Shown here in pieces: positions 11,319-38,150 of a stretch of 64,000 bases of DNA. The position numbers and the translations under genes were made by a program. Origin of the DNA: a virus. Lineage: Duplodnaviria; Caudoviricetes. The stretch spans positions 76,181 through 140,180 of the IMG/VR virus record IMGVR_UViG_3300021133_000001. The stretch is one strand, 5' to 3'. The notes beneath the pieces were generated by a model. The model made no database searches, had not been told where the DNA came from, and worked only from the letters and a program-made list of their open reading frames with translations. Each line of letters begins with the position of its first letter. Position 1 is the first letter of the stretch.

Positions 11319-14300
11319 TTAACTTGCTGATAAGGATTGTTTTAGTGTATTTACTTCAGCTTTAAGCTCTTTCACGGCTTCAATTAATAATGCTGTTAAA
11401 CGAGTATAATCAATACCTACGCAAACTTCTCCTGCACTTGTAGCACTTGTTGATACTACTTGTGGTAGTACTAATTTTACATCTTCTGCAATAAGACCTA
11501 TATTATTAGTATCAGATACATCATATGAACTATCATACATTACACCTGATAGCTGTTCAGTAACTGTTAAAGCATTGCCTATTGTGGTTGTTAAAGGTCT
11601 AATATTGGTTTTGTATCTCTTAGATGAAGTAGTAGTATATGATACAGCAGTAACATCTCCGCTTGAAGCTAAAGTAATGTGTACACCCGCTCCTGACCCT
11701 GTACCAAAGTAAGCAGTGTTTGTGAATAGAGATATGTTGTTTTGAGTTAAACCACCAGCATTAGTAATACCAGCTGCACCTATATAAGCACCGTAACCGC
11801 TAACATTACCACTACCATCTATACCATAACCGGTAGAAGCAATACCTAAACCACCCGGGCTAGTATTAACACCAGCAAAGTTTACATATGAATTTGTGTT
11901 TAAGGTTTGGTTTGCAGTAATTCCTTGAGCACCGGTAGCGCCTTGTGCACCAGTAGAACCCTTACTACCTTGAGCACCAGAAGCTCCTTGAGCTCCAGTT
12001 GCACCTTGAGCTCCGGTAGCGCCTTGTGGTCCGGCACCCTGAGCACCCTGAGCACCTTGAGCACCCTGAGCACCTTGTGCGCCTGTAGCTCCTGTAGAGC
12101 CTTTTAATCCAGAATAGCCTGAATAACCTGAAGCACCTTGTGTGCCTGTAGCGCCTTGTACTCCGTTGACACCAGAATAGCCAGAATAACCAGAAGCACC
12201 TTGTGCTCCTGTAGCTCCTTGAGGCCCGGTACCTTGAGCTCCGGTCGCGCCTTGTGCACCCTGTGCACCTTGTAGACCTGTAAAACCTTGAGGTCCTACT
12301 GGACCGGAGTAACCAGAATAACCACTTGTACCTGTAGTACCTTGTGCACCTATAGCGCCTTGTGCTCCGTTAATACCTGAAAAACCCGATATACCACTAA
12401 AACCGCTTATACCAGTAAAGCCTGAAATACCAGTAAAACCAGAATAACCTGAAATACCGCTAAAGCCGCTAGTACCGCTGAAACCAGAATAACCAGAAAT
12501 ACCACTGAAACCAGAAAAACTTGAATAACCACTATATCCTGATATACCAGATGTTCCAGATATACCGCTAAAACCACTTATACCGGTATAACCTGAATAA
12601 CCAGAATTACCTTGTGCGCCTGTAGCTCCTTGTACTCCGTTAATACCTGAATAACCAGAAACACCTGAAGCTCCTTGCGCGCCTTGCGGTCCAGTACCTT
12701 GAGCGCCAGTAGCGCCTTGTGCACCTACAGGCCCACTGTAACCACTATAACCAGAAGTACTATTACCACTAAAACCAGAATAACCAGAACTGCCTTGAGC
12801 GCCTTGTGGGCTACCTGCAGCACCTTGTGGTCCTTGATTACCTACAAAACCTTGAGGTCCTTGAGGGCCGGAAAAACCAGAATAACCAGAAATACCTGAA
12901 GTTCCTTGTGCGCCAGTAGCGCCTTGAGCACCTTGTACGCCCATAATACCTACACTACCTTGAGTACCCTGTACACCTTGAGCGCCTACTGCACCGGAAA
13001 AACCAGAATAACCAGAAGTACCAGCATTACCTTGCGCACCTACAGAACCGACCGAACCTTGTGCACCTGTTGCTCCTTGAGTTCCCTGTGGACCAGTAGC
13101 TCCTGTTGAACCTTGTCCGCCAGTAGCACCTTGAGCTCCTTGAGCACCTTGTGCGCCAATAAAACCTTGTACACCAGACAATCCTGAGTAACCCGAGTAA
13201 CCAGATGTACCGGAAGCACCTTGAGCACCCTGTGAACCTTGATTACCTTGAGCTCCTGTAGAGCCGTTTATACCTGAATAACCAGAAGGACCGACAACAC
13301 CTTGTGCACCTTGAGCTCCTGTAGAGCCTTTAGCACCAGAGTAGCCAGAAACCCCTGAACCACTAAAACCAGAAATACCGGTATAACCAGAAATACCTGA
13401 AAAACCACTATAGCCTGAAATACCACTAAGACCTTGTGCGCCGATTTGGCCACTAATACCGCTAAACCCGGAAATACCGGAAGTACCACTATAGCCAGAT
13501 ATACCACTAAACCCACTTATACCGCTAAAGCCTGATTGACCGCTAGCTCCAACAGCACCACTAAAACCCGATGTACCGCTAAAGCCTGATTGACCGGAAT
13601 AACCTGAAAAACCAGATAAACCTAAACCACTAAAGCCTGATACACCGCTAAAACCCGATGTACCGCTAAAGCCTGAAAAACTTGAATAACCTGAATAGCC
13701 AGAACCACCTATACCACTAAAGCCTGAAAAGCCAGAAGCACCGGAAACACCTTGACCGATAGGTGTACGTATTACTGTATATACTGAGCTACCATTATAT
13801 TGATAGGAAGCTGAAACAGGCGTGGAACTTGATGTATATGCTGCAATCTGTAACAAGATACGATCAGTAGCAGATAAAATAGTTACATTATTTGATACAG
13901 CCCCTACTTTTTGAAATGTTGATACTGTATCTGTTACTACACCAGAATCTGCACTTAAGATAAATGCACTTGTGGCACTAGTTGCCATTGAATATGTATA
14001 GACACTGAATACAAAATTAACTGGGCCACCTAGAGCGTAACGGTAAAATTCAATATCCCATAATCCAGCTGGTATTTCTACTACACCAGGCTCTCCAGGA
14101 GGTGTTAAATACCAACCAAATGCACTAATACCGTTTGTATTAGTAATTACAACTTGGTCATCATTTACAGTTGTACCGCCGCCACCTGGCTGTAAAGCCA
14201 TTACTTCAAACACTGCAGGGTTTTGGTCACTCGTTACTTCTTCTAAAAAGTATGTTCTACCATATAAAGAACCACCTGCAGGACCAGAAACACCAGACCA

Positions 14301-14939
14301 ACCACTAATACCTGAAAAACCAGAAGCACCTGAAAAACCAGAAGTACCATTTATACCAGAAAAACCAGAAGTACCGGTGTAACCAGACACCCCACTAAAA
14401 CCAGACCAACCACTTGTACCACTATAACCTGATTGCCCGGTGTAACCGCTTATACCAGAAAAGCCTGATATACCAGAAAAGCCTGATTGACCGCTATAAC
14501 CTGTAAAACCACTTGCACCACTAAAGCCAGAAGTACCGCTAAAACCGGAAACACCTGTATAACCACTTATACCACTGTAACCGCTAAAACCAGAGCTACC
14601 TTGAGCTCCTTGTGTGCCTTGAGCACCTTGTGGACCGGTAGCACCCTGCGGACCAGTACCTTGAGCACCAGTTGCACCTTGAGCTCCCTGTGCACCATTA
14701 ATACCATTTGTGCCATTAGTACCGTTTTGACCGGAGTAACCTGATAACCCAATACCTTGTGCACCTTGTGAGCCAGTTAAACCACTGTAACCTGATTGAC
14801 CACTATAACCTGAAGTACCGCCAGGAGCGCCTTGCACGCCTGGAAAACCAGAAGCACCAGAAGCACCAGAATAACCGGAAAAACCTGAAGCTGCTGCAAC
14901 AGGTACCATCTCAAGATTTGTTATTGTTGTTAGTGCCAT
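11319..14939 (-). CDS. Collagen-like (Gly-X-Y) fibre protein with internal globular domain and C-terminal S74 chaperone
   Basis: Alternating GAQ/GAT/GPQ and GFS/GIS/GYS tracts; C-terminus [12 protein letters not shown]...IGLIAEDV...[17 protein letters not shown]. Confidence 0.9.
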
Positions 14940-16247: not shown

Positions 16248-17168
16248 TTATGGTAATTTTGCACTAAGCTGATCAACCTTGGTTGAAAGAGTCTTAACTG
16301 CTTCAATTAAGAGAGCTGTTAAACGACCGTAATCAATACCAACACAAGAACCGTCATCATTAGTTAAAACTACTGCAGGTACTAATGGGAGTACGTCTTC
16401 AGCAATAAGACCAATTTCGTTAGTTGCTGTTAAGTCGATAAGACTATCATAAGCAACTGCACTTAATGCTTTGGTTGTTGCAAGAGGATCGCTAACAACA
16501 GCTGTAATTGGTCTAATGTTTGTTTTACCTGTACGAGAAGATGTTGAAGTAAACGAAAGAGCTGTAATACCAAGCGAGGTAGAAATTGCACTACCGTTAT
16601 CAGTAATAGAACTGTTTGTTAATGTAGTTGCACCAGAAAATTTAGCAACTAAATTTGATGTACCACCAGGGCTTACACCAGTAGCACCTTGCGCGCCTTG
16701 AGCACCAGTTGCACCCTGCGCACCTGTTGAACCAGTAGCACCTTGAGCGCCTGTTGCACCTTGAGCGCCAGTTGAACCAGTAGCACCTTGAGCACCGTTA
16801 GAACCATTTGTACCTGAGGCTCCTTGTGCGCCTTGAGCACCGGTTGCACCTGTAGAACCTTTTAAGCCAGAATAACCAGAAGCGCCTTGTGCGCCGGTAG
16901 AACCTGTAGCACCTTGTGAACCAGTAGCTCCTTGATTGCCTTGAAAACCTTGTGCACCTTGAGCGCCGTTAGCTCCAGAAAAACCAGAAATACCTTGTGC
17001 GCCTTGCGCGCCTGTAGCGCCTGTAGCGCCTTGAGCACCAGTAGAACCCTTACTACCTTGAGCACCGTTTGTGCCGTTTAAGCCTGTAGCGCCTTGAGCA
17101 CCTTGTGCTCCTTGTGCGCCTGCGCCTGAATATCCTGAGTATGCGTTTGCTGGATTAAAGTATGCCAT
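16248..17168 (-). CDS. Short collagen-like fibre with C-terminal S74 chaperone
   Basis: About 50 GAQ/GAT/GST triplets; [12 protein letters not shown]...IGLIAEDV...[15 protein letters not shown]. Confidence 0.9.
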
Positions 17169-17226: not shown

Positions 17227-17880
17227 CTATATAGTTTGCCTTAAACGCTGCATTGGATATACAGGTACATCTAGTCTGCTTATAAAGAATACTAAAGTTA
17301 ATCTTTCAGTTGTATCTTCCCCTACATATTCATTAGCTGTATGATATAAATGGGAGTCAAATGAAAGCAGTCTATTAAATTTATTTTTAATAATAATAGA
17401 ATCAGTAAATTGATTGTTATTTTGCTGTCTAAGAGTATTGATATCCCCTTTATAATTCTTAGGGTCTGCAATAAATTTACGCTTTTCTTCTCCGTTAATT
17501 AATTGTGTACCAGGTACTTTAGGTTCACATATAGAAGTACCTGAATTTTCATCTCCATCCGGGTTAAGATACACAATACCTGTTATAATATCATTATCTT
17601 TATGTACCCAACCAGATTTAAAATCCTTGTTTACTTTTTGAAAATATGCTTTAGCAAAGTAATTTTTTATATCCGCAATAGGGTAATATATAGAAAGAAA
17701 CTTAAAAATAGTATAATAATGTAAATTTGCGTTAATATTTATTAATAAATCCGATCTGGTTCCAGGCCACATTTTGTTGGGGTCTGGCGAAAAGTTTTGT
17801 ACTAATGCAAACTCTCTTACTTTGTAAGGATCTTCAAAGAATCCGTCTATAACTGAAGTAGGAATAATATAATTTTGCAT
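17227..17880 (-). CDS. 2OG-Fe(II) oxygenase (DUF6445-like)
   Basis: VIDGFFEDPYKVREFAL, WPGTRS, GWVHKD (HxD), GIVYLNP, SGT, NKFNRLLSFD..LYH (distal His). Confidence 0.85.
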   Translation of the reverse strand: MQNYIIPTSVIDGFFEDPYKVREFALVQNFSPDPNKMWPGTRSDLLININANLHYYTIFKFLSIYYPIADIKNYFAKAYFQKVNKDFKSGWVHKDNDIITGIVYLNPDGDENSGTSICEPKVPGTQLINGEEKRKFIADPKNYKGDINTLRQQNNNQFTDSIIIKNKFNRLLSFDSHLYHTANEYVGEDTTERLTLVFFISRLDVPVYPMQRLRQTI

Positions 17881-17897
17881 AGTTCTATGATAAGTTA

Positions 17898-19274
17898 TTA
17901 TTTTGAATAGTCAATACCGTATAGGTCTAATTCTTGTCGAGCTAATTCTGGTGTAATTTTATCTATACCTGCAAGTATCCAATTATAGAGAGATGCCCCT
18001 ACACTGCCATAATAGTAATCATATTGCAATCCACCAGGTACTGTATGTTTACATCTTTCTAATAGATCAGCCACAAAAGGTGTTATAGTTTTGCCTGATT
18101 TTATATAACGCCAAAACTCGGAATCATCTCTACCGCCTTGATAGTGTAGTACTAAGAAATCTAGTACATCATCATATAATTTACACATTTTTTTATTATA
18201 ATATTTTCTGTTAACGTCAATTAATGTACTCGTCGCGTCCGGTCTTAAATATTCCATAAACGTTAATAATTGTACTATTGTGGTGTGAATAGAAGTAGCC
18301 TCTAAAGGCTCAGCAAATGCTGCAGCTAGACCTAACACTAAGCAGTTACTTTCCCACAAAGTTTCGCACCTACCGCTATCAAAGCTTATATGTCTTATAG
18401 GCTCTATTTTTCTACCCAATGCAGTTTCGACCTCTTGCTGTGCTTGATCAGGTGTAATGCAGTTTGATTGATAAACATACCCGCAGCCTATTCTTTCTGT
18501 GGTAGGTATTTGCCACATCCACCCCGAACTTAATGCATGTGCTATGGTTACCGGTCTTGGGCGGTTATCTTCATCTATAGGTAATAAAAATGGCATTGCT
18601 CGGTCAACAGGCAAATGAGAAGCATATGTTTTCCATTTAACTTCTAGAGCATTCATTAGTACTCTCTTAAAACCGGTACAGTCCACGAAAAGATCTCCTT
18701 CAAGTTCTTGGCCGTTGTTTAAACGTATTTTTGTTATTACGTTCTTTTCGTTAATCCCCACATCATTAACAACAGCATCAATTACTGTAATATCGTCTTT
18801 AAGTACTTTTTTAAAATGTGCACCTATTTTAAATGCATTAAAATGATACGCAGAAATAAGAGATATATTACCTTCAGAGTAAATTTTACCAAATTCTGAG
18901 GCTTTATGCATACCTTCTTTGCCTTCTTTAATAAAAGATTTTAAGAAATGTATATCAGGGCTTGATGTGCCGGTTCTCGTGCCGTCAAGCGGTGCAAAGT
19001 AACTATCTCCAGCTGGTGTCCAGTTTTTATGTAATATACCTAGTTTAACTGTCCCGTCAACGTCGTTTAAAAAGTTAGATATAGTAGTACCAGTTTTAAA
19101 CCAGTGATTTGATAGTACGTTTACCAGCATTCCAGTTGAGCCTTCTCCAGCACCAATAATACTAATTTGACTAGACTCAACAACAGTGACTTTGTGCTTA
19201 CCTAATTGTGCTTTAGTAAAAAATAAAGCAGCAAGCCACCCAGCTGTACCACCACCCACTATTACTATGTTCAT
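17898..19274 (-). CDS. Flavin-dependent (tryptophan-halogenase family) halogenase
   Basis: IVIVGGGTAGWLAA (GxGxxG), IIGAGEGS, VKLGI (candidate catalytic Lys), DLFVDCTGF, GWMWQIP (WxWxIP), FAEPLEATSI. Confidence 0.92.
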   Translation of the reverse strand: MNIVIVGGGTAGWLAALFFTKAQLGKHKVTVVESSQISIIGAGEGSTGMLVNVLSNHWFKTGTTISNFLNDVDGTVKLGILHKNWTPAGDSYFAPLDGTRTGTSSPDIHFLKSFIKEGKEGMHKASEFGKIYSEGNISLISAYHFNAFKIGAHFKKVLKDDITVIDAVVNDVGINEKNVITKIRLNNGQELEGDLFVDCTGFKRVLMNALEVKWKTYASHLPVDRAMPFLLPIDEDNRPRPVTIAHALSSGWMWQIPTTERIGCGYVYQSNCITPDQAQQEVETALGRKIEPIRHISFDSGRCETLWESNCLVLGLAAAFAEPLEATSIHTTIVQLLTFMEYLRPDATSTLIDVNRKYYNKKMCKLYDDVLDFLVLHYQGGRDDSEFWRYIKSGKTITPFVADLLERCKHTVPGGLQYDYYYGSVGASLYNWILAGIDKITPELARQELDLYGIDYSK

Positions 19275-19311
19275 AACTATATTTTAATATAGTTTTTTAT
19301 TTTTTCCAGCT

Positions 19312-19578
19312 TTAAGCTTTAGCTGACAAATTATACGACCAAATAATTCGATTTTTAATATAATTTATTTGGCCTATGTAATCTATAACTTCTGTGGGTA
19401 GATCGACTACGTTATCTGGCATAGCTACTAAACCAGTAGCCTCGTAAGCTGAAAGTGGCATGTTACCTGATGATAAGCTTATTGAATCGGTGTACAGTTG
19501 CATCGCAAACGCAGATAACAACGGTACATTGTAATAATCTTGTATATGATTTACGTATGAGTTTGGTATATTGGCCAT
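19312..19578 (-). CDS. Small hypothetical protein
   Basis: 88 aa ORF starting 4 nt after the upstream adhesin gene. Confidence 0.6.
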   Translation of the reverse strand: MANIPNSYVNHIQDYYNVPLLSAFAMQLYTDSISLSSGNMPLSAYEATGLVAMPDNVVDLPTEVIDYIGQINYIKNRIIWSYNLSAKA

Positions 19579-19582
19579 ATTA

Positions 19583-20584
19583 TTACCTTACATAAAGTTC
19601 TACTCTTGCTGATCTGTTTATACCGGTTTGATTTTGACAGCAAGCAACATAGTCTCCAGCTGAATAATTACCGAAATTACCTGCCATTCCTAAACCACCA
19701 GAAACGTCGTCAGAACCAGCAGCTCCACTATTAAACAATGTAGAAGGGTCACTATATTGCCCTTCACCGTTTTCATTCCAACCAAACCCCCAACGCACCG
19801 CTGCCCCACCACCGTAACCCCAGTCCCCTGCATTAATAAAGTTATATCCGTAAAAGTTGATATCGTTTTGAGATGAAAAGATACCAGTTTGAAAACCATT
19901 AAAACCGGATGCCCCACCTAGAAAGTCACCACCTGCACTACCAGAACCGTCATCTTGATACGTACCAGCATTGCTAAAAAAGTTTAAAAGAGTTGTTGTG
20001 CTACTAACATTAGGGCTGTCTCCTTGACCTGCAAAATTATTTTGCAGCCAAGACCAGCAACCATACGGATTACTACCTAAACCACCACCATTAGTACCAA
20101 TATCAGGCCACAACGCCATCATATCTGTAACGTTAGCATAATTAAAGACCTGAAACTTTGCATCTCCGTCATTACGGTTAGTTGCGCTCGTGTTTAAAGT
20201 ATTATTGCCTGTCCAGTAACCAGAATTATAATTAAAAGTAGTACCACGAGTTGCTTTTAACGCCATCATCCATCCACCACCGTTTGCGCCAGAGTTTAAT
20301 AAACAGTACACCGGGGTTGAACCTACACTAGGTAAATTAATATAATACACTCCGTCAGTACGATACCCGGCATTGTATAATGCTTTAGCTGAAGAAGCAG
20401 GGTTTCCAGCTGTACCTAATGTATTAGTTTTACCGTAAAAGTTATTTAATGCTATTTGTCCAGAAGCTATACCCGCTAAATTACGAGCAGTAGAATCATT
20501 AAGTGTAAGAGCTGTAGTAGCTGTACTACCAAGCTCCACATCTATATTACTCATTGATATAGTACCTGATGATTGTAACGTCAT
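19583..20584 (-). CDS. Putative fibre-tip adhesin with fibrinogen-like (YCxxxxxGGGW) domain
   Basis: N-terminal MTLQSSGTISMSNIDVELG...GQIALNNFYGK attachment-type motif; DGVYYI...VYCLLNSGANGGGWMM; Gly/Trp-rich C-terminus. Confidence 0.75.
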   Translation of the reverse strand: MTLQSSGTISMSNIDVELGSTATTALTLNDSTARNLAGIASGQIALNNFYGKTNTLGTAGNPASSAKALYNAGYRTDGVYYINLPSVGSTPVYCLLNSGANGGGWMMALKATRGTTFNYNSGYWTGNNTLNTSATNRNDGDAKFQVFNYANVTDMMALWPDIGTNGGGLGSNPYGCWSWLQNNFAGQGDSPNVSSTTTLLNFFSNAGTYQDDGSGSAGGDFLGGASGFNGFQTGIFSSQNDINFYGYNFINAGDWGYGGGAAVRWGFGWNENGEGQYSDPSTLFNSGAAGSDDVSGGLGMAGNFGNYSAGDYVACCQNQTGINRSARVELYVR

Positions 20585-20595
20585 TTATTATATAT

Positions 20596-21663: not shown

Positions 21664-21677
21664 AGCTATATTTTATA

Positions 21678-23312: not shown

Positions 23313-24009
23313 TCTTGGTCTTAGTCTCGAGTTTCAACTGGTCCTTAGCAACATCATCAATATAAGCTAAATCTGTTCCTGCTGAACTCATTAACTGTTT
23401 CATTGTTGCTTGACCGATTGCATCAAGTCCTTTACCTAAAACCCCATTATATTTAATAGCAAGACCAAGTGTTTCTTTAACATCTGGCATCGGCATCATT
23501 AATATTGAGTCTAAGTTACCTTGACTAATACGTCCAATAGTGTTTAAGTCCATTGCAGCCTGTTTAGCCATTCTCGTTATCCAGTACTCCCGTTCTAATT
23601 GTTCATTATGAGTACCGAATTGTTGTAACGCTTCTAAGTTAGGTACAACTGCTTTTACCATGTTAACAAAGTTATTAAGTTCATTTTGAACCATAACTTC
23701 TTTTTTGTCATACATATGAATGTCCCAATCTGCTTGATCAATATCAACTTGAATAAGTTGTTTCTTTAACTCGTCTGGTTCATTTGCAATATCGCGTTCT
23801 AATATTTGCTTTTCTATCATGCGCTTTCTGCGCTGACGTTCAATTTGCTTTTGTGAACCAATACGAGTATCAATTTCTAGTAAAGCTTGACGCACTCTAC
23901 GGTAATCTGTTACTTGTGAATTTACAACAAAGTAACGAGATTGAAAATCAGACATGCCGAGAGAGTTTTCGTTCTCATCGACGAATTTAATAATATCATT
24001 ATATTCCAT
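23299..24009 (-). CDS. Coiled-coil hypothetical protein
   Basis: 236 aa, charged and helical; overlaps the U32 gene start by 14 nt. Confidence 0.75.
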   Translation of the reverse strand: MEYNDIIKFVDENENSLGMSDFQSRYFVVNSQVTDYRRVRQALLEIDTRIGSQKQIERQRRKRMIEKQILERDIANEPDELKKQLIQVDIDQADWDIHMYDKKEVMVQNELNNFVNMVKAVVPNLEALQQFGTHNEQLEREYWITRMAKQAAMDLNTIGRISQGNLDSILMMPMPDVKETLGLAIKYNGVLGKGLDAIGQATMKQLMSSAGTDLAYIDDVAKDQLKLETKTKSEDI

Positions 24010-24012
24010 ATA

Positions 24013-24678: not shown

Positions 24679-24691
24679 GGTTTAAAGTTAT

Positions 24692-25756: not shown

Positions 25757-25757
25757 A

Positions 25758-26828: not shown

Positions 26829-28007
26829 TTACTTTTTAACTAAACTTTTTAGTTCTTCTATTTGAGCTTGCTGTTCTTTTATTGCTTCAATAAGAAGAGG
26901 TATAATTTTTTCGTACTGCACTGTTTTAAAGTTATTACCGGACTTAGAACTAATTGTACCGTCGTTGTTTACTAATACATCAAACGGTGCAGGTTTAATT
27001 ACTTCTGGTAATACTTCTTCTACTTCTTGAGCAATAACACCTACTTGTAATTCATCGGAAGTATAACCGTACTGTTTAGCGGTTTCGTTATTAGTGTAAT
27101 ATACACCGTTTAAAGATAATACTTTAGGTAGAGCACCGCTAATATTACTCTTAATATCTTTAAGTCTCTTATCTGAATAGTAAGCTGCAACATTGCCTGT
27201 TGCATATACACTACCGTAAACTGTTAAACTACCAGAAACACCTACGTTACCGTAAATGTTACCACCAGATGTTCTAAAAATTAGAGAAGGATCAACTACA
27301 GGTGTAGCTGCAACCCATTGACTGTTGTACCAAACGTTTAATACGCCTGTATCTGAATTCCACCACAGGTAGCCGTTTGCAGCACCGCTAGGGGTACCGT
27401 TATTAACACCACTTTGTACTATAGCATTATTACTAATGCCTTGAGAGCCTTGAGCGCCCTGCGCTCCTGAACCAGTTGCACCTTGAGAACCAGTGGAACC
27501 AGTAGCCCCTTGAGCTCCTGTTGCTCCTTGTGCGCCAGTAGAACCAGTGGAACCAGTAGCCCCTTGAGCTCCTGTTGCTCCTTGTGCGCCAGTAGAACCA
27601 GTTGAACCAGTAGCCCCTTGAGCTCCTGTTGCTCCTTGAGCACCATTAGATCCGTTACTACCTGTTGCGCCTTGAGCACCGGTGGAACCTTTAGCTCCTT
27701 GTGCGCCTGTAGCCCCTTGGGCACCTGTTGCACCTGTAGCACCTTGAGCACCGTTTTGCCCGGTTGTACCGTTAACACCTTGTGCTCCTTGAGCGCCTGT
27801 AGCACCTTGAGCGCCGTTTAAACCATTTACGCCTGATATACCTTGAGCACCTTGAGCACCTTGTAATCCGGTATAACCTTGAGGTCCAATTGCGCCTTGT
27901 GCACCTTGAGAACCAGTTTGTCCTGTTTGACCGGTTGCACCTTGCGGGCCTTGAGTGCCTGAAAATCCTGAAGCTCCTTGTATACTATATGTAAACGGTG
28001 TAGCCAT
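26829..28007 (-). CDS. Collagen-like fibre with C-terminal S74 chaperone
   Basis: About 60 GAQ/GAT/GST triplets; [13 protein letters not shown]...W module; YSDKRLK...[15 protein letters not shown]...[16 protein letters not shown]. Confidence 0.9.
27487..27638. repeat. 54-bp near-exact tandem repeat (~2.8 copies) within the collagen tract
   Basis: gaaccagtggaaccagtagccccttgagctcctgttgctccttgtgcgccagta at 27487 and 27541; partial copy at 27595 with one mismatch. Confidence 0.9.
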
Positions 28008-28016: not shown

Positions 28017-30941
28017 TTAACTTAATCTTGCACTTAACTGTGCTATTAAAGTATTTTGATTATTTATTTGTACTTGTTGTTCTTTAATAGCTTCTACTAG
28101 TAAAGATGTTAAACGACTGTAATCAATACCGATATAGTTTCCGGCGCTATCTGGGTCATCATAAACTACTTCTGGAACTATATTTACTGTATCTTCTGCA
28201 ATAAGCCCTATATCGTTTGGATCGGTTTTAAGAGTGTTATCATACCATACACCAGATAATTGTAGTACTCTATTTAAAGAATTGGTTAATGGTCGTATAT
28301 TAGTCTTAAAACGTCTAGATGAAGTAGAAGTAAATGAATAAGCTGTAATACCAAGAGATGTTGATATAGCACTACCATTATCAGTAATAGAACTATTAGT
28401 TACTGTGGTTGAACTGTTAAACTTAGCAACAACATTTGAAGTACCGCCTGAACCAGCAGCTGCACCTTGTGCGCCTGTAGCTCCCTGTGCACCTGTTGAT
28501 CCTGTAGCACCTTGTGCACCGGTAGAGCCTGTAGCACCTTGTGCGCCTGTAGCACCTTGTGCGCCGTTAGAACCGTTTGTACCAGCTGCACCTTGTGCAC
28601 CATTCGTACCAGCTGCACCTTGAGCGCCTGTAGAACCAGTAGAGCCTTTTAAGCCAGAATAACCTGAAGCGCCTTGAGCGCCAGTAGAGCCTGTAGCGCC
28701 TTGAGCGCCTGTTGCACCTTGAGCGCCAGTAGAACCTGTAGAACCTGTTGCACCTTGAGCGCCAGTAGAACCTGTAGAACCTGTTGCACCTTGAGCTCCT
28801 GTAGAGCCTTTAGCACCAGAGTAACCAGAGTAACCAGAGTTTGATCCTGCTGCTTGAATTTGTGAACCAGGATACTCAACAATTAAACCTGCTGTAGTAC
28901 CTATACCGATCATAACCGGTTTAATGATTGAACCTACAGCTGATGGGGGTGTTGTGGTCATTAGACCTGCTGTTGCGTCTGAAAGATAATATTGTGCAGC
29001 ATCTACTATACCTGTAAAGCCTGAAGTATAACCGTTAGCTACATACTGGAAAGAAGTACCAGTAGCGCTTACTACTACACCGATAATATCTGACGTGCTT
29101 GGGCTGTTGGCTTGTGCTAATGCATAACCACCAGATGTCTTGTATATAACATTACCCGGACTAAAAGAGTTGCTATATGTTACATTTACATTAGTAGCAT
29201 TTAAACCGCTTATACCAGAAAAACCAGATACACCTGAACCACTAAAACCACTAAAGCCTGAGTAACCAGAAACACCGCTAAAGCCTGAAATACCGCTAAA
29301 ACCTGATTGACCAGAAATACCACTGAAACCAGATATACCACTAAATCCTGAAATACCTGTATAGCCAGAATATCCTGTAATACCGCTAAAGCCTGAGATA
29401 CCAGAGAAGCCTGATATACCACTAAAACCGGACCAGCCTGATATACCGCTCGCTCCTGATATACCGCTAAAACCACTAATACCTGTAAAGCCTGAATAAC
29501 CAGAGATACCGGAGAAACCTGTTATACCACTAAAACCGGACCAACCACTGATACCGCTAAAGCCTGAAATACCGCTGAAACCACTTATACCTGAAAAACC
29601 AGAAAAGCCTGTGAAGCCACTATAACCAGATATACCGCTAAAACCTGAAATACCTACACCAGAATAACCTGATGTACCAGACACACCCTGACCGATTGGG
29701 GTACGTACTACAGTAAACTGCGAACTACCGTTATATTGGTAAGCAGCAGTAAGTGTTGTTGTACTTGTTGTATAAGCTGCAACTTGTAATAAGATACGAT
29801 CTGTTGCAGAAAGAATTGTAATATTGCTTGTAGCGTACTGTACTTTTTGATAGGTTGAAGTAGTATCTGTAACGGCACCGGAATCGGCGCTTAAAATAAA
29901 TGCACTCGTGGCACTAGTTGCCATTGAGTAACTATAAATGCTAAATACAAAATTAGCTGTACCACCTAAAGCGTAACGATAAAATTCTATATCCCATAAA
30001 CCTGCAGGTATTTCTGTTATACCAGGTTCACCGATTGGTGTTAAGTACCAACCGAAAGCACTTGGACTGCCTGGACCTGCTGTAGTAGAATTAAGAGCTA
30101 GTTGGTCGTCATTAACTGTCGTACCACCACCGCCTGGCTGTAAAGCCATAACTTCAAACACAGCAGGGTTTTGATCACTAGTTACTTCCTGTAAGAAATA
30201 CGTTCTACCATATACAGATGCGCCTGTGCCACCTGACCAACCCGAAATACCACTAAAGCCGCTGATTCCGCTAAAACCACTTATACCACTAAAGCCAGAC
30301 CAGCCTGATACACCACTTGCACCAGATATACCGCTAAAACCGGATATACCACTAAAACCGCTGAAGCCAGAATAACCGCTGACACCACTGAAACCACTTA
30401 TACCTGTATAACCGGAATAGCCAGAAATACCTGTAAAACCTGAATAACCTGATATACCGCTAAAACCAGACCAGCCTGATATACCACTAAAACCTGATAC
30501 ACCACTCGCTCCTGATATACCGCTGAAACCACTTATACCTGAAAAACCAGATATACCACTTGCGCCAGATATACCACTGAAACCAGAAAAACCTGAAATA
30601 CCTGTATAACCGCTATAACCGGAAATACCGCTAAAACCACTTATACCTGAAAAACCAGACCAACCGGATATACCGCTAAAGCCTGAAATACCTGTATAAC
30701 CACTATAACCGGATATACCACTAAAGCCAGAAAAGCTCGAGTAACCGCTATAACCGGAAATACCAGAGAATCCACTTATACCACTAAAGCCAGAAAAGCC
30801 TGAAATACCAGTAAATCCAGAATAACCGGAAGCACCCTGTGCACCAGTAGAGCCTTTTGCACCTTGCGCACCTGTTACGCCAGTAGTACCTGAGTAACCA
30901 GACTGTCCCTTAATCGCTGTGTATACAAATGTATTGCTCAT
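28017..30941 (-). CDS. Gly-X-Ser/collagen-like fibre with two globular domains and C-terminal S74 chaperone
   Basis: Two long [12 protein letters not shown] tracts, shared GRTY...TPIGQG domain, FSPGNVIY...IIGVV domain, GAQ/GAT tract, TSSRRFKTNIRP...IDYSRLTSLLVEAIKE. Confidence 0.9.
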   Translation of the reverse strand: MSNTFVYTAIKGQSGYSGTTGVTGAQGAKGSTGAQGASGYSGFTGISGFSGFSGISGFSGISGYSGYSSFSGFSGISGYSGYTGISGFSGISGWSGFSGISGFSGISGYSGYTGISGFSGFSGISGASGISGFSGISGFSGISGASGVSGFSGISGWSGFSGISGYSGFTGISGYSGYTGISGFSGVSGYSGFSGFSGISGFSGISGASGVSGWSGFSGISGFSGISGFSGISGWSGGTGASVYGRTYFLQEVTSDQNPAVFEVMALQPGGGGTTVNDDQLALNSTTAGPGSPSAFGWYLTPIGEPGITEIPAGLWDIEFYRYALGGTANFVFSIYSYSMATSATSAFILSADSGAVTDTTSTYQKVQYATSNITILSATDRILLQVAAYTTSTTTLTAAYQYNGSSQFTVVRTPIGQGVSGTSGYSGVGISGFSGISGYSGFTGFSGFSGISGFSGISGFSGISGWSGFSGITGFSGISGYSGFTGISGFSGISGASGISGWSGFSGISGFSGISGFSGITGYSGYTGISGFSGISGFSGISGQSGFSGISGFSGVSGYSGFSGFSGSGVSGFSGISGLNATNVNVTYSNSFSPGNVIYKTSGGYALAQANSPSTSDIIGVVVSATGTSFQYVANGYTSGFTGIVDAAQYYLSDATAGLMTTTPPSAVGSIIKPVMIGIGTTAGLIVEYPGSQIQAAGSNSGYSGYSGAKGSTGAQGATGSTGSTGAQGATGSTGSTGAQGATGAQGATGSTGAQGASGYSGLKGSTGSTGAQGAAGTNGAQGAAGTNGSNGAQGATGAQGATGSTGAQGATGSTGAQGATGAQGAAAGSGGTSNVVAKFNSSTTVTNSSITDNGSAISTSLGITAYSFTSTSSRRFKTNIRPLTNSLNRVLQLSGVWYDNTLKTDPNDIGLIAEDTVNIVPEVVYDDPDSAGNYIGIDYSRLTSLLVEAIKEQQVQINNQNTLIAQLSARLS

Positions 30942-30972: not shown

Positions 30973-33900
30973 TTATACTATAAACCAGTTAGTACCGTTA
31001 TATACAATAGTGGTTGCTTCGTAGTTATAGTTTAATAGATAAGTAGCTTGACCGTCAATTGTTACCCCTGCACCAGATAACGTAATGTTATTTGTGCGAG
31101 CTGCACCAGATTCGTCTTTAATTGTTATAAATGTACCTTGATTTAATGGTAGAGCTGGCAAGTATAATAAAGCACTTCCAGAGACATTAACACCTACATA
31201 TTCGTCAGTTGACTGTAATACGTTTGGTGAAGTTGTTACTAATCTTACACCTTGAACGTTTGGATATATAATCTGTGAATTATCGAGATTTAAGTAACCA
31301 CGTTCGTTTACAACAACTGCTGTTGTAGATGTAACAGCTCTCATGATTGGCTTCGACACTGTACCGAAAGCACTTGGTGAAACTGTTGTAACACTACCTG
31401 CAATAGTTGGTGATAGGTAATAACATTCCCCTGGTGTCAAGCTTGCAAGACCTGTAATTAAGCCCATGTATACGATTGTAAATGTTGTACCTGTTGAAGA
31501 TTGAACAACACCGGTTGCTTCAGCATCTGTTACATTGTCTGCTTGAGCTAAGAACCAACCACTTGAACCGTTGTCAAGACGTACCACGTTACCAGCACTG
31601 AATGTGTTGGTATATGTAATGACTTGACTTGAAATGTTTACTGTAGTACCAGAGATACCTGAGAAACCAGATATACCGCTAAAGCCGCTATAACCGGAAA
31701 TACCAGAGAAGCCCGATATACCAGAAGCGCCAGACCAGCCTGAAATACCACTAAAGCCTGATATACCGCTAAAGCCGCTAATACCGCTAAAGCCTGAAAT
31801 ACCAGAAAAGCCGGAGTAACCAGAAATACCCGAGAAACCAGATATACCGCTAAAACCGCTGTAGCCACTAATACCGCTAAAGCCAGACCAGCCGCTAATA
31901 CCTGAGAAACCGCTAATACCAGTGAAACCACTGATACCTGTAAAGCCTGAATAACCAGACCAACCAGAGATACCGCTAAAGCCGCTTATACCGCTAAAGC
32001 CGGAGTAGCCTGAAATACCAGAGAAGCCGCTATAGCCACTTATGCCACTAAAGCCAGACCAACCACTGATACCGCTGAAACCGCTAATACCGGTAAAGCC
32101 TGAGAAGCCAGAGTAGCCTGAGATACCAGAGAAGCCTGAGATACCACTAAAGCCGCTATAGCCACTAATACCGCTAAAGCCCGATATACCAGAGAAACCA
32201 GAATAACCTGACCAACCACTGATACCACTAAAGCCTGATATACCAGTAAAGCCTGAGAAGCCGCTTATACCGCTAAAACCACTATAGCCTGAAATACCGC
32301 TAAAGCCTGATATGCCCGAGAAACCGGACCAACCGCTAATACCAGAGAAGCCTGAAATACCAGAGAAGCCACTTATACCGCTAAAGCCAGAGTAACCAGA
32401 TATACCGCTGAAGCCTGACCAACCAGAAATACCTGAGAAACCAGATATACCAGAGAAGCCAGACCAACCAGAAATACCACTAAAGCCTGAGGTACCAATA
32501 CCGCTAAAGCCGGAGAAACCTGAACTACCACTTACACCTTGACCGATTGGCGTACGTAAAGCGGAATATATTGAACTACCATTGTAATGGTAAGTAGCAG
32601 TAATTGTTGATGTGCTTGTTGTATAAGCTGCAACTTGTAATAAGATACGATCTGTTGCAGAAAGCTTTGTAATCGTGCTTGTAACGTAACCTAATTTTTG
32701 GAAAGTTGAAGATGTATCTGTAACAGGACCTGAATCAGCACTTAAGATAAATGCGCTAGTAGCGCTTGTAGCCATTGAGTAACTATATACGCTAATAACA
32801 AAGTTTGCTGCGCTAGCAGAAACGTTACGATAGAAATCGAATTCCCACAAACCAGCTGGAATTTCAACTAAGCCTGGTTCCCCAATTGGTGTTAAGTACC
32901 AACCGTAAGCGCTTGGGCTACCTGGACCTGCTGTGGTAGAGTTAAGAGCTAATGCGTCATCGTTTACGTCTGTACCACCACCGCCTGGCACTAACGACAT
33001 TACTTCAAATACTGTTGGGTTTTGATCGCTTGTTACTTCTTGTAGGTAGTATGTTCTACCGTAAATGGATGCACCGGTACCACCAGAGACACCAGACCAA
33101 CCACTAATACCACTGAAACCACTAATACCGGTAAAGCCACTATAACCGGAAATACCACTAAAGCCTGAAATACCGCTAAAGCCGGAGTAACCAGAAATGC
33201 CTGAGAAACCGCTAATACCAGTAAAGCCTGACCAACCGCTAATACCTGAGAAACCTGAAATACCAGTATAGCCAGAATAGCCTGAAATACCGCTAAAGCC
33301 GCTTATACCGCTAAAGCCTGAGATACCAGAGAAGCCAGAATAACCTGACCAACCGCTAATACCGCTAAAACCACTTATACCTGTATAGCCTGAGTAGCCG
33401 GAAATACCGCTAAAGCCTGACCAACCAGAGATACCAGAGAAGCCAGACCAGCCTGATATACCGCTGAAACCGCTTATACCTGTAAAACCTGAAATACCAG
33501 AAAAGCCTGAGAAGCCAGAATAACCTGAAATACCAGACCAACCAGAAATACCGGTATAGCCTGAATAACCGCTAATACCCGTAAAGCCGCTATAACCGGA
33601 AATACCTGTAAAGCCGGACCAGCCTGAAATACCACTAAAGCCGGAAATACCAGAGAAGCCCGAGAAGCCAGTGTAACCACTAAAACCGGTGAAGCCAGAA
33701 ATACCGCTAAAACCGCTAATACCAGTGTAGCCAGAATAACCTGAAATACCTGTAAAGCCTGAATAGCCTGAAATACCAGAGAAGCCGGACCAGCCACTAA
33801 TACCGCTGAAACCGCTTATACCTGTAAAACCTGACCAACCTGAAATACCACTAAAGCCGCTAATACCTGTAAAGCCTGAAATACCAGAAAAGCCACTATA

Positions 33901-34089
33901 GCCGGAAATACCGGAGAAGCCGGACCAACCAGAGGTACCACTGATACCACTAAAGCCGGACCATCCGCTAATGCCTGAGGCTCCGGAATAACCGCTTGTG
34001 CCGGTTGCGCCTTGTGCACCTGTTGCACCGTTTGCGCCAGAGAAACCTGATTGACCTCTAATTGCTGTGTATACGAAGGAATTTGCCAT
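30973..34089 (-). CDS. Gly-X-Ser repeat fibre protein (no S74 domain)
   Basis: Two ~300-residue G-[F/I/Y/W]-[S/T] tracts flanking the shared domain; C-terminal FSAGNVVRLDNG domain and IKDESG...TIDG...YNGTNWFIV domain. Confidence 0.9.
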   Translation of the reverse strand: MANSFVYTAIRGQSGFSGANGATGAQGATGTSGYSGASGISGWSGFSGISGTSGWSGFSGISGYSGFSGISGFTGISGFSGISGWSGFTGISGFSGISGWSGFSGISGYSGFTGISGYSGYTGISGFSGISGFTGFSGYTGFSGFSGISGFSGISGWSGFTGISGYSGFTGISGYSGYTGISGWSGISGYSGFSGFSGISGFTGISGFSGISGWSGFSGISGWSGFSGISGYSGYTGISGFSGISGWSGYSGFSGISGFSGISGFSGISGYSGYTGISGFSGISGWSGFTGISGFSGISGYSGFSGISGFSGISGYSGFTGISGFSGISGWSGVSGGTGASIYGRTYYLQEVTSDQNPTVFEVMSLVPGGGGTDVNDDALALNSTTAGPGSPSAYGWYLTPIGEPGLVEIPAGLWEFDFYRNVSASAANFVISVYSYSMATSATSAFILSADSGPVTDTSSTFQKLGYVTSTITKLSATDRILLQVAAYTTSTSTITATYHYNGSSIYSALRTPIGQGVSGSSGFSGFSGIGTSGFSGISGWSGFSGISGFSGISGWSGFSGISGYSGFSGISGFSGISGFSGISGWSGFSGISGFSGISGYSGFSGISGFSGFTGISGFSGISGWSGYSGFSGISGFSGISGYSGFSGISGFSGISGYSGFSGFTGISGFSGISGWSGFSGISGYSGFSGISGYSGFSGISGFSGISGWSGYSGFTGISGFTGISGFSGISGWSGFSGISGYSGFSGISGFSGISGYSGFSGISGFSGISGFSGISGFSGISGWSGASGISGFSGISGYSGFSGISGFSGISGTTVNISSQVITYTNTFSAGNVVRLDNGSSGWFLAQADNVTDAEATGVVQSSTGTTFTIVYMGLITGLASLTPGECYYLSPTIAGSVTTVSPSAFGTVSKPIMRAVTSTTAVVVNERGYLNLDNSQIIYPNVQGVRLVTTSPNVLQSTDEYVGVNVSGSALLYLPALPLNQGTFITIKDESGAARTNNITLSGAGVTIDGQATYLLNYNYEATTIVYNGTNWFIV

Positions 34090-34145: not shown

Positions 34146-37100
34146 TTAAACTAAATTCCATCTATTGCCGTAATATACTAAGCTTATTGTTTCATACGGG
34201 GATGTAATTTGGTCAAAAGTGTATCCGTCAATGGTGTCTGGATATGTAGCAGATATTGTAATAGTATTTGTAGTATCATTAGCTAATCCTGTCATATCTT
34301 TAATAGAATATGCTTTACCATTATAACCAACTGGTAGAGTAATGGTAGAAGGTCCGTTGTATTGTACACCAATGTAATAGTCTGTAGGTACAGCTGTATA
34401 GTATTGATTAGTAACGCCTGTTACGTTTACAGAACCACCTAATGCAGAGTCGTTTGAATTTAATATACCTCTTTCATTAACAACAACACCCACATTTGAT
34501 GTAATTGCACGTAGTATTGGTTTTGAAACAGTACCTGTAGCACTAACTACTGCAGTTGTAATAGCACCAGGAACATCTGGGGATAAGAAATAGCATTCCC
34601 CTGGATTTAATAGTGGTTGATCAAATGTTATTAAACCGTTATATACTATATAGAAGTCGTAAGCAGAAGCATATTGTACAACACCAGTTGCTTCAGCATT
34701 TTGAGGTGTATTAGCCTGGGATAAGAACCAACCGCTATTACCGTTATCAAGTCTTACTACTTGACCTGCACTAAAACTATTACTATAAGTTATTAACTGA
34801 CTAGAAATATTAACAGGCGAGCCACTATAACCGGATATACCGCTAAAGCCCGAGAAACCAGAAATACCGCTATAACCCATTATACCGGAATAACCGCTAA
34901 AGCCAGACCAACCAGATATACCTGAGAAACCATCTATACCGCTATAACCTGAAAAACCGCTTATACCAGAAAAACCTTGTACACCTTGATAACCACTAAA
35001 GCCTGACCAACCACTAGAGCCTGAAGTACCGGAATCGCCTTTTACTTGACCAACATTAGTCCAGGTACCACCAGCATGTACCCATAAATCACCAGAAGTT
35101 TCATCTATAACACCGTTACCGTCAACTGCTGATGAGAACGCGGCGTTTAAAGTTTGTTGTGGGTCGCCAGGTGGGTTAACATTAGCGTCTGGTACAGTAC
35201 CAATAATAGCAACTGAAGAACCGTTAACACCAGAGTAACCAGAAAGACCTACATCGCCTTGTGCACCTTGCGGTCCAATATCTCCTTGAGAGCCTTGGGA
35301 ACCTTGGAAGCCTTGATCTCCCTGTGCACCTTGGGGTCCGGTATCGCCTTGATTACCTTGCGGTCCAATATCACCTTGAGCGCCTTGTGGGCCGAAGTCG
35401 CCTTGTGCACCTTGATAACCTTGTGCACCTTGTGAGCCGACATCCCCTTGATAGCCTTGAGGTCCTATATCCCCTTGCGCACCTTGTGGGCCGAAACCTG
35501 AATAACCAGATACACCAGAACCGCTAAAACCTGAGAAGCCAGATATACCAGTAAAGCCTGAGAAGCCACTATAACCTGACCAACCAGATACACCTGTATA
35601 ACCAGAATAACCCGATATACCACTATCCCCACTGAAACCGGAAATACCGCTAAAGCCACTAAAGCCGCTTGTACCGGTAAAACCGCTTATACCGCTAAAG
35701 CCTGAAAAACCAGAATAACCTGAAATACCAGACCAACCAGAATCACCTGTGAAACCTGATATACCGCTAAAACCGGACCAACCAGATGTTCCAGAGATGC
35801 CCGAAAAGCCTGATATACCACTGAAGCCTGACCAGCCGCTTATACCACTAAAGCCTGATATACCTGAAGCACCTGAAATACCGCTAAAACCAGATATACC
35901 GCTAAAGCCCGACCAACCGCTTATACCTGTATAACCAGATATACCGGAGAAGCCTGATATACCTGAAAAACCACTTATACCGCTAAAGCCTGATTGACCA
36001 GAATAACCAGAATAACCTGATACACCAGAACCACTGAAACCAGATATACCTGATTGACCAGAGAAGCCTGAGTAACCAGAAATTCCTGAGAAGCCAGATA
36101 TACCACTAAAACCGCTTATACCTACAAAGCCTGAGTAACCGCTAAAGCCTGAAATACCGCTTGCGCCAGACCAACCAGAGGTACCAGAGTCACCTTTTAC
36201 TTGACCTACATTAGTCCAGGTACCGTTTGTATATACCCATAAATCGCCAGTATTTTCATCTATAACACCGTTACCGTTTACGGCGCCTGGGAATGCAGCG
36301 TTTAAAGTAGCTTGTGCGTTACCACCTACAGTAGGTACTGTACCAATAATAGTAACTGAAGTACCGTCTTTACCACTATAACCAGACTTACCACTAGTAC
36401 CACTAAAACCACTTATACCACTAAAACCAGAAATACCTGAAAAACCTGAGTAACCAGATATACCAGAAAAGCCTGATATACCGCTAAAGCCTGATATACC
36501 AGAAGCACCGCTAAAGCCGCTATAACCAGTTATGCCGCTAAAACCGGACCGACCCGAAATACCGCTAAAGCCTGAAGTGCCGGAAGCGCCACTTATACCA
36601 CTAAAACCACTAATACCGCTAAAGCCTGATTGACCGGTATAGCCCGAGTAACCAGATATACCACTGAAACCTGATATACCACTTGCGCCAGATATACCAC
36701 TAAAGCCCGAGTAACCAGAAGTACCTGAAGCACCACTTATACCGCTAAAGCCTGACTGACCCGAATAACCTGAATAACCAGACCAGCCTGAAATACCGCT
36801 AAAGCCTGATTGACCGCTGTAGCCACTATAGCCAGAAATACCACTAAAACCGGAAATACCTGATTGACCGGTAAAGCCTGAGTAACCGCTAAAACCTACA
36901 TAACCGCTGAAGCCGCTGTAGCCGGAAATACCGCTAAAGCCCATATAGCCGGAGTACCCAGAAAAGCCTGAATAACCAGACGTACCGGAGTAACCCATAT
37001 CACCGCTATAACCGGAAATACCGCTATAACCAGAAGTACTATCACCACTAAAACCTGAAATACCTTGATCGCCTTGTGCACCTTGAGGGCCTGTAGCACC

Positions 37101-38150
37101 ACTATAACCAGACGCGCCATCTTTACCATCTGAACCTAAAGTAAGGTTAGTTACAAACCTACTATAATGATTTGTACCAAGATACCAATATGTAATGTCA
37201 ACACCACCACCTGCATTAGGGTCTGAGGTATCTGTTGTTTGACCAAATACGCTTATCTTAATTCTGTCAGATAAGTTTAAAGGTATTGGGGTATCAATAT
37301 AATATGATGTTCTTTGGAATGTCGGTGTAGGTGTTCTTGTTAATGCATCACCTGTTACCGAAAACAACATTGTTTCATTGTCGCTTGGATCTACCTTGTA
37401 AACAGCGTAAGTTAAATGAGTATTAACGCCTGGATCCATTGCATGTGGACCAGACATTGAATAATACGTATCAAAGTACCAAGTACCAGTATTAATTAAC
37501 GACTTATTAGGAGAACCTGTAAGCGTAATTGTATATAATATTGGAGCAGGGTTTTGAAGGTAATTAAAATAACCGGAATCATCTGCAGCTTCAGCAGCAT
37601 CTTGAGGCTCTGGAGTTAAAAATACATCGTTTGGTACGTCTGCAGCAATATTAGTTGGGTATAATATTAGACCAACAACTGATTGACCAGAATAGCCAGA
37701 CTTACCACTATAACCGGATAAACCTAAACCTGAAAAACCAGAATAACCACTAGCACCGCTTATACCACTAAAACCAGAAGTACCGGAACTGCCTTGTGCT
37801 CCTTGTGCACCTTGTGCTCCGTTAATACCGGAGTAACCAGATGCACCAGTGTCTCCTTGCGGACCGGTAGGTCCTTGAGGGCCCATGTCACCTTGCGCAC
37901 CAGGAGGCCCACCTGCTGACAAAGCAGAAATTGCTACCGAGTAAGTTGTATATGAACCGTCATTATTGACTTGCTCCAAGAACGTTAGATCGTTCGTTGT
38001 AATGTTTGGGGCTTGAGAAAGTTCGTGTGGAAATACAATAGACGGTACTACATTGCTTCCGGCTGTAGTTGTTGCACCCGAAACACCATAATCATTAAGT
38101 GCGGATAATTCGTTTACATATACTATAGTGGGGTATTGCGGAACCGGCAT
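34146..38150 (-). CDS. Gly-X-Ser/collagen-like fibre protein next to the neck gene
   Basis: GFS/GIS/GYS tracts, an acidic GPQ/GAQ/GD tract, two copies of IIGTVP...GNGVIDExxGDLWVxxxGTWTNVGQVKGDSG; C-terminal domains homologous to 30973..34089. Confidence 0.9.
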   Translation of the reverse strand: MPVPQYPTIVYVNELSALNDYGVSGATTTAGSNVVPSIVFPHELSQAPNITTNDLTFLEQVNNDGSYTTYSVAISALSAGGPPGAQGDMGPQGPTGPQGDTGASGYSGINGAQGAQGAQGSSGTSGFSGISGASGYSGFSGLGLSGYSGKSGYSGQSVVGLILYPTNIAADVPNDVFLTPEPQDAAEAADDSGYFNYLQNPAPILYTITLTGSPNKSLINTGTWYFDTYYSMSGPHAMDPGVNTHLTYAVYKVDPSDNETMLFSVTGDALTRTPTPTFQRTSYYIDTPIPLNLSDRIKISVFGQTTDTSDPNAGGGVDITYWYLGTNHYSRFVTNLTLGSDGKDGASGYSGATGPQGAQGDQGISGFSGDSTSGYSGISGYSGDMGYSGTSGYSGFSGYSGYMGFSGISGYSGFSGYVGFSGYSGFTGQSGISGFSGISGYSGYSGQSGFSGISGWSGYSGYSGQSGFSGISGASGTSGYSGFSGISGASGISGFSGISGYSGYTGQSGFSGISGFSGISGASGTSGFSGISGRSGFSGITGYSGFSGASGISGFSGISGFSGISGYSGFSGISGFSGISGFSGTSGKSGYSGKDGTSVTIIGTVPTVGGNAQATLNAAFPGAVNGNGVIDENTGDLWVYTNGTWTNVGQVKGDSGTSGWSGASGISGFSGYSGFVGISGFSGISGFSGISGYSGFSGQSGISGFSGSGVSGYSGYSGQSGFSGISGFSGISGFSGISGYTGISGWSGFSGISGFSGISGASGISGFSGISGWSGFSGISGFSGISGTSGWSGFSGISGFTGDSGWSGISGYSGFSGFSGISGFTGTSGFSGFSGISGFSGDSGISGYSGYTGVSGWSGYSGFSGFTGISGFSGFSGSGVSGYSGFGPQGAQGDIGPQGYQGDVGSQGAQGYQGAQGDFGPQGAQGDIGPQGNQGDTGPQGAQGDQGFQGSQGSQGDIGPQGAQGDVGLSGYSGVNGSSVAIIGTVPDANVNPPGDPQQTLNAAFSSAVDGNGVIDETSGDLWVHAGGTWTNVGQVKGDSGTSGSSGWSGFSGYQGVQGFSGISGFSGYSGIDGFSGISGWSGFSGYSGIMGYSGISGFSGFSGISGYSGSPVNISSQLITYSNSFSAGQVVRLDNGNSGWFLSQANTPQNAEATGVVQYASAYDFYIVYNGLITFDQPLLNPGECYFLSPDVPGAITTAVVSATGTVSKPILRAITSNVGVVVNERGILNSNDSALGGSVNVTGVTNQYYTAVPTDYYIGVQYNGPSTITLPVGYNGKAYSIKDMTGLANDTTNTITISATYPDTIDGYTFDQITSPYETISLVYYGNRWNLV

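Follow-up and report, generated by a model that had tools for sequence, protein, structure and literature searches.

Gly-X-Y repeats with aromatic residues at X and serine at Y in fibre genes of an uncultured T4-like phage: a probable and apparently unstudied variant of the collagen-like phage fibre

Collagen triple helices are built on Gly-X-Y repeats in which stabilising residues at X and Y are usual, if not strictly defining. The rules for their stability were worked out on animal collagens and a small number from bacteria and name proline or hydroxyproline (Pro/Hyp), charge pairs and Thr/Gln hydration. BclA of Bacillus anthracis and Scl1 and Scl2 of Streptococcus form triple helices without hydroxyproline that are capped by a jelly-roll trimer; BclA is GPT-rich and glycosylated with Thr at Y, and charge pairs abound in the Scl proteins. 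Among phage proteins, EPclA of the Escherichia coli O157:H7 prophages forms a trimeric triple helix that melts at 42 °C (Ghosh et al. 2012, PMC3368898), and cyanophage P-SSM2 has Gly-X-Y tail-fibre candidates in which X and Y are often Pro, Ser or Thr (PMC1079782). Here we analysed a stretch of 64,000 nucleotides (the window, bases 76181-140180 of the 140-kb IMG/VR phage contig IMGVR_UViG_3300021133_000001) whose fibre genes encode long G-[F/I/Y/W]-[S/T] tracts. Like EPclA, EPclB and the phage collagen-like fibres of family PF01391, the window fibres have Gly-X-Y shafts, globular flanking domains and no hydroxyproline. Unlike EPclA/EPclB and the P-SSM2 candidates, they have almost only Phe, Ile, Tyr or Trp at X and almost only Ser or Thr at Y, in tracts of up to 110 triplets without Pro or charge. 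BclA gave a weak sequence match to the tracts and shares with them a prokaryotic Gly-X-Y repeat without hydroxyproline, but neither BclA nor the Scl proteins have aromatic residues at X. With a probability of roughly 0.62 we read the tracts as collagen-type triple helices that form the shafts of homotrimeric tail or neck/collar fibres. In composition the repeat would be a variant form of the collagen-like fibres known from phages, and it is real, conserved, widespread and apparently unstudied.

Counting by regular expression found Gly-X-Y tracts in seven minus-strand open reading frames (ORFs), which together contained 1,008 triplets, 550 of them G-[FYWI]-[ST], and every collagen-like gene of the contig fell within the window (Table 1). 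The in-phase tracts of these fibres included runs of 110, 95, 75, 57, 56 and 47 triplets. The purest protein, P0001 (ORF 30973-34089), consists of an 11-residue head, tract 1, a globular knob, tract 2 and a 222-residue C-terminal domain. Over its two tracts X was Ile, Phe, Tyr or Trp in 93% and Y was Ser or Thr in 99% of triplets, and the longest pure G-[FYWILV]-[ST] run was 94 triplets. The stabilising residues usual in collagens (Pro/Hyp, charge pairs, Thr/Gln-rich triplets) were not found in these tracts. As Gly makes up 24% of the residues of P0001, 110 in-phase Gly would arise by chance with a probability of order 0.24^110, ruling out a chance origin. A first-pass annotation of this DNA had described Gly-every-third G-[F/Y/W/I]-S tracts, mostly alternating GFS-GIS with GWS, GYS and GFT substitutions and essentially free of Pro and charge, and our counts bore this out, with 110 and 95 in-phase triplets and 0 Pro and 0 Asp, Glu, Lys or Arg in the two tracts of P0001. 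It had placed them at 11319-38150; this range does contain aromatic-Ser fibres, but it also takes in nine non-fibre genes lying between fibre genes (17227-26825, minus strand) and two short fibres of G-A-[Q/T] triplets, and the fibre ORF at 5619-9215, which also has a long non-collagen part, lies outside it. The two short fibres share the ordinary G-A-Q/T chemistry of known phage collagen-like fibres, and the one at 26829-28007 serves as a within-phage comparator.

The repeat is a feature of the protein and not a DNA artefact, and selection acts on residue class and phase. Within the tracts all six Ser codons are used, and Gly, Phe and Ile are each encoded by several codons. The 31 GFSGIS units of tract 2 are spelled in 29 different ways at the DNA level, on average 72% identical in pairwise comparison, and exact DNA repeats in the tracts reach lengths of 23-35 nucleotides, as expected from random synonymous codon choice. 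P0001 aligned without gaps over 998 residues to a near-identical orthologue on another contig (L044), and the tract codons of the two differed by 216 synonymous and 65 replacement changes with no change of Gly. Nearly all replacements were exchanges of Ser and Thr at Y or swaps among Phe, Tyr, Trp and Ile at X, with a few between Ala/Thr/Val and Gln/Phe/Ile. Rough arithmetic from these codon counts puts the ratio of nonsynonymous to synonymous substitution rates (dN/dS) of the tracts near 0.1. The excess of synonymous changes, the in-class replacements, the invariant Gly and the random-like codon use indicate that the tracts are translated proteins under constraint. Codons differed from L044 at 46% in the tracts and 15% in the globular parts, about threefold, with no insertions or deletions and with residue class kept. 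The faster divergence of the tracts may reflect unit-shuffling recombination or simply freer synonymous sites.

This alignment also bears on the possibility that the tracts form a disordered, sticky low-complexity region acting by multivalent aromatic contacts, like that of FUS, whose [G/S]Y[G/S] motifs the first-pass annotation had mentioned. The aromatic, Gly and Ser composition does resemble that of prion-like low-complexity domains, and the confidence of AlphaFold2 (AF2) over the tract was very low. However, disordered regions keep composition and not register, whereas here 205 triplets stand in perfect phase, the orthologues align without gaps around invariant Gly, and tract lengths are conserved, and we therefore give the FUS-type reading almost no credence.

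The match to collagen was strong at the level of the profile. The four aromatic-Ser proteins scored 231-334 bits against Pfam Collagen PF01391 (gathering threshold 27.2), with E values of 5e-70 to 7e-102, and the earlier description of the tracts as collagen-like holds on both Gly phase and profile score. Aromatic-Ser triplets and ordinary G-A-Q/T or G-P-x triplets alternate inside single uninterrupted tracts of ORF 11319-14939 (residues 99-224 and 810-905), and the same in-phase mixing was seen in ORF 5619-9215; ORF 28017-30941 also has an ordinary G-A-[T/Q] tract of 42 triplets. Because the two triplet types are interleaved in phase within single tracts, one backbone geometry must serve both. 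A conventional triple helix is the simpler reading as compared to the new fibrous fold proposed at first pass, since the tracts pass without loss of phase into ordinary phage triplets and the same polypeptides carry the S74 domain described below. Between P0001 and L044, Ile and aromatic residues interchange at X, and this free interchange favours a solvent-exposed X over separate core and surface roles.

The order of residues at X was not random. Over window positions 31642-34056 Ile was nearly always preceded by an aromatic residue (mostly Phe), Ile-Ile pairs numbered 0, Trp and Tyr entered as single inserted triplets, and the autocorrelation of X identity peaked at 5 and 8 triplets. We could not tie this grammar to the helical symmetry of collagen. 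An exposed surface has no obvious need for Ile after an aromatic, for the absence of Ile-Ile or for the 5-triplet peak, and the composition is unlike that of any collagen of solved structure, as might be expected if the tracts adopted a different ordered fibrous fold such as a polyproline-II (PPII) based assembly built around a core or zipper of aromatic residues and Ile, a GFSGIS beta-solenoid, or a lateral bundle. The I-S-G-F-S-G sequence is loosely like the hexapeptide motif of left-handed beta-helices. However, a single G-[W/Y]-S triplet breaks the GFSGIS hexad in roughly every other unit, Ile residues lie either 2 or 3 triplets apart in similar numbers, and no Pfam Hexapep match was found at E <= 0.01; the left-handed beta-helix was rejected on these grounds. 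Snow-flea antifreeze protein and S16 gp38 share with the tracts a Gly-rich three-residue periodicity, and PPII/polyglycine-II bundles of this kind have a PPII backbone. They are made of short, turn-linked helices with small inward residues, whereas the tracts of P0001 run for 330 and 285 residues with no turn or break and place a bulky residue in every triplet, and the turn-linked bundle that had also been mentioned does not fit such tracts. AF2 gave no monomeric fold: in a monomer model of residues 730-1038 the tract had a predicted local distance difference test score (pLDDT) of ~23 and no secondary structure, a result that informs on the monomer and not on the trimer fold, and the C-terminal domain reached a pLDDT of 50-70 from a 9-sequence alignment. 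Taken with the in-phase mixing of aromatic-Ser and ordinary collagen triplets, we consider a different ordered fold quite unlikely.

Folded domains flank the tracts. The knob of P0001 gave an AF2 model with a pLDDT of 79.9, in which it is a galactose-binding-like or carbohydrate-binding module (CBM)-like jelly roll. It matched the C-terminal domain of PDB entry 8yzn (PaL; VIA Z 15.3) and, with lower scores, the C-terminal jelly-roll domains of X-prolyl dipeptidyl aminopeptidases, an archaeal aminopeptidase and cocaine esterase (VIA Z 10.5-13.4) and CBM15, CBM4 and CBM36 (VIA Z 7-9). An identity with TNF/C1q was tried and rejected, as the Foldseek matches were weak (TMq ~0.3, root-mean-square deviation >9 Å). 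Paralogues of the knob were found by tblastn in ORF 28017-30941 (77% identity) and ORF 11319-14939 (68%), with a diverged copy in ORF 34146-38150, and proteins of uncultured phages in which collagen repeats and S74 domains are annotated contain the module too. The C-terminal region of P0001 has 7,199 relatives, and a paralogue with 50% identity ends ORF 34146-38150. PDB sequence searches with the knob and with this C-terminal domain returned no match. A C-terminal S74 domain (PF13884) scored above threshold, with its Ser/Lys cleavage motif, in ORFs 5619-9215, 11319-14939, 16248-17168, 26829-28007 and 28017-30941. In the two aromatic-Ser fibres among these, 28017-30941 and 11319-14939, the intact S-x4-K motif, GLIAED and the terminal helix were all present. 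S74 is an intramolecular chaperone that drives the folding of parallel homotrimeric fibres and afterwards releases itself from them by self-cleavage.

In a triple-helical fibre of this kind three parallel chains would be set in register by folded trimerising domains, S74 in two of the proteins and the jelly-roll knob with the C-terminal beta-domain in the others. From there the Gly-phased tracts would close up into a triple helix around a core of Gly, its surface covered by the Phe, Ile, Tyr and Trp side chains of X and the Ser and Thr hydroxyls of Y. The triple helix rises 0.286 nm per residue. On this figure the tracts of P0001 would be ~94 nm and ~82 nm long, the tens of nanometres foreseen in the first-pass annotation, and the whole beaded fibre ~180 nm, comparable to the long tail fibres of T4. 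The result would be uncharged rods of ~80-95 nm joined by CBM-like knobs that lengthen the reach of a receptor-binding tip, and the aromatic and hydroxyl surface would probably make weak contacts with glycans or neighbouring fibres during adsorption. A presumed aquatic habitat would lessen the need for thermal stability.

Several points weigh against a triple helix. Aromatic residues at X and Ser at Y are among the least favourable for the triple helix in host-guest peptides, the tracts lack every known stabiliser, and a tendency to aggregate is expected of a rod that exposes ~330 hydrophobic side chains. The Pfam Collagen score is largely a measure of Gly periodicity. S74 was not found by profile search in ORFs 30973-34089 and 34146-38150, the two purest aromatic-Ser proteins. 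What the data show directly is the sequence pattern, its conservation in the protein, the phage setting and the distribution; the trimer, the triple helix and the role of the surface are inferred. PDB sequence searches found no solved chain with the composition of the tracts, and the alignments to solved collagens rest on Gly periodicity alone. PDB entry 8zxl ('spindlefibril/axialfibril') was considered as a solved relative and rejected, its (GAPGSQGAPGLQ)n sequence having no aromatic residues.

The distribution of the repeat was assessed by a pattern scan of viral contigs, a check suggested with the first description. The aromatic/Ile-Ser repeat was detected in at least 120 contigs, and all matches listed have collagen-like ORFs. 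Among the 120 contigs listed, pure runs of at least 20 triplets occurred in 29 and of at least 50 triplets in 4. A neck-like gene lies beside such fibres in 14 related contigs, and the large terminase (TerL) is 69-87% identical in the 13 of these that include it. A scan of 185,579 prokaryotic genomes gave 33 stretches, about half of them without any Gly-X-Y ORF and few with real tracts, mostly on contigs of metagenome-assembled genomes, suggesting that the repeat is essentially viral. Relatives in a set of 5.8 billion proteins were all unnamed or 'hypothetical' and their tracts were less pure. No description of an aromatic-Ser collagen-like chemistry was found in the literature searched, nor were the motifs printed there, in keeping with the absence of an already characterised family among the PDB matches. 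Against cultured phages, tblastn of the whole of P0001 gave only a weak C-terminal match, to Salicola phage SCTP-2; this search is weak for the whole protein because the low-complexity filter masks the repeats.

At the DNA level the tracts matched a single entry among 50,697 phage records, Methylophilaceae phage P19250A. Its gene P19250A_0023 (KX815270.1; L155:5552-9157) encodes a protein of 1,201 residues annotated 'tail length tape-measure protein'. Like the window fibres, this protein has many Gly-X-Y triplets (281, including 160 G-[FYWI]-[ST]) and very few Pro (4). Unlike those of P0001, its tracts contain 41 charged residues (Glu/Asp at X), and pure runs extend to no more than 7 triplets as compared to 94. 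P19250A is a siphovirus, unlike the phage of the window, and the non-repeat domains of P19250A_0023 are unrelated. From its repeats the protein is probably a collagen-like fibre and the tape-measure annotation probably wrong. As P19250A is a cultured phage, it makes the structure question directly testable.

The triple helix might also form only after modification, for instance O-glycosylation, of the Ser/Thr at Y or of the aromatic residues at X, which would supply both stability and solubility. The almost uniform Ser/Thr at Y would suit such a scheme, glycosylated Thr at Y stabilises worm cuticle collagen, and BclA too is glycosylated. The contig has five GT2 glycosyltransferase genes, one of them beside the fibre block (window 3059-3904, minus strand); further GT2 coordinates are G000:C1:41402-44622 and 62576-62734, with three of the genes clustered near 41-45 kb. 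GT2 genes are also present in the two largest related contigs, and genes for a Trp halogenase, a 2-oxoglutarate (2OG)-oxygenase-like protein and a methyltransferase-domain protein lie between the fibre genes of the window. However, these inter-fibre enzyme genes (halogenase, oxygenase and methyltransferase-domain), the GT2 gene at 3059-3904 and the membrane-protein and propeller genes were each found beside the repeat at only 0-2 of the 120 other viral loci listed (1.0 Mb). A dedicated modification cassette is unsupported because the neighbouring genes co-occur with the repeat this rarely. No GT2 gene was found in three of five related contigs, but those three are short fragments. GT2 is moreover a broad family with many non-protein substrates, and acceptor specificity is not readable from sequence. 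We regard a modification-dependent helix as possible but unlikely.

A bolder version would make the tracts a new fibrous class, either a triple helix held by an external aromatic/Ile ladder encoded in the X grammar and the five-triplet quasi-period, or rods that need Ser O-glycosylation or Trp/Tyr modification to form at all. We think this quite unlikely; if true, it would mean a principle of Gly-X-Y stabilisation that no collagen studied so far shows. Many environmental phages maintain, under strong purifying selection, tracts as long as 330 residues that use none of the known stabilisers. If these tracts are triple-helical, the helix would be stabilised or used in a new way, and they would offer an uncharged, aromatic-coated rod for materials work; if they are not, they would represent a new fibrous fold. 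For phage biology the fibres would be the appendages on which a widespread uncultured T4-like lineage mainly relies for adsorption.

The source contig has a CheckV completeness estimate of 44% and a G+C content of ~36%. By its genes the phage is an uncultured myovirus of the T4 superfamily, with terminase, sheath and neck-like genes adjoining the fibre block. Its kinship to cultured phages is distant: the terminase is 34% identical to those of T4-like cyanophages and the sheath ~31% identical to those of coliphages, and megablast of the neighbouring region returned no match. The fibre genes form a tightly packed block on the minus strand from 38150 down to 5619, in which ORF 34146-38150 adjoins the neck-like and terminase genes.

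Table 1. Fibre genes, their parts and neighbouring genes in the window (window coordinates)
Feature	Position	Strand	Details
P0001, purest G-[FIYW]-[ST] fibre gene	30973..34089	-	1,038 aa; Pfam Collagen E 5e-89
P0001 tract 1	33067..34056	-	aa 12-341; 110 in-phase triplets
P0001 jelly-roll knob	32497..33066	-	~180 aa; between tracts 1 and 2
P0001 tract 2	31642..32496	-	aa 532-816; 95 triplets
P0001 C-terminal all-beta region	30976..31641	-	two modules; no Pfam family
Fibre gene	34146..38150	-	1,334 aa; 238 triplets, 143 G-[FYWI]-[ST]
Fibre gene	28017..30941	-	974 aa; 165 triplets, 106 G-[FYWI]-[ST]; knob; C-terminal S74 chaperone, SSRRFK motif
Fibre gene	11319..14939	-	1,206 aa; 258 triplets, 93 G-[FYWI]-[ST]; knob; C-terminal S74 chaperone
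Short fibre gene	26829..28007	-	392 aa; 57 ordinary G-[A/S]-[T/Q] triplets; S74 chaperone
Short fibre gene	16248..17168	-	306 aa; 50 ordinary G-A-[Q/T] triplets; S74 chaperone
Fibre gene	5619..9215	-	1,198 aa; 35 triplets (11 aromatic-Ser, three-triplet period); S74 chaperone
DUF6445/2OG-oxygenase-like gene	17227-17880	-	
Trp halogenase	17898-19274	-	PF04820 E 7e-86
DUF401-like membrane protein	20596-21663	-	
Methyltransferase-domain protein	21678-23312	-	phrog_1458
Two phrog_1417 paralogues	24692-26825	-	
Neck-like gene	38163-39230	-	
Large terminase gene	40274-42058	-	
Tail sheath gene	44543-46825	+	

Three of the fibres (N-termini at 30941, 34089 and 28007) share a 10-11-residue head, M-[AS]-[NT]-x-F-[VT]-Y-x-[AI]-[IQ], which leads straight into the first Gly-X-Y triplet, and the same short head is present in the relatives L041, L088 and L092. 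This conserved sequence may be an attachment peptide. The T4 late-promoter motif TATAAATA occurs on the minus strand of the fibre block at 30967 (26 nucleotides upstream of ORF 28017-30941) and also at 24696 and 6198. The leaders of many late-block genes are rich in A/T, lack a Shine-Dalgarno sequence and finish with TATAAT or ATATAAT right before the ATG, as at the minus-strand starts at 38150, 28007, 25756, 14939 and 9717. Near the window end, a radical-SAM-domain gene (phrog_14086, E 6e-11) was found on the minus strand at 62532-63800.

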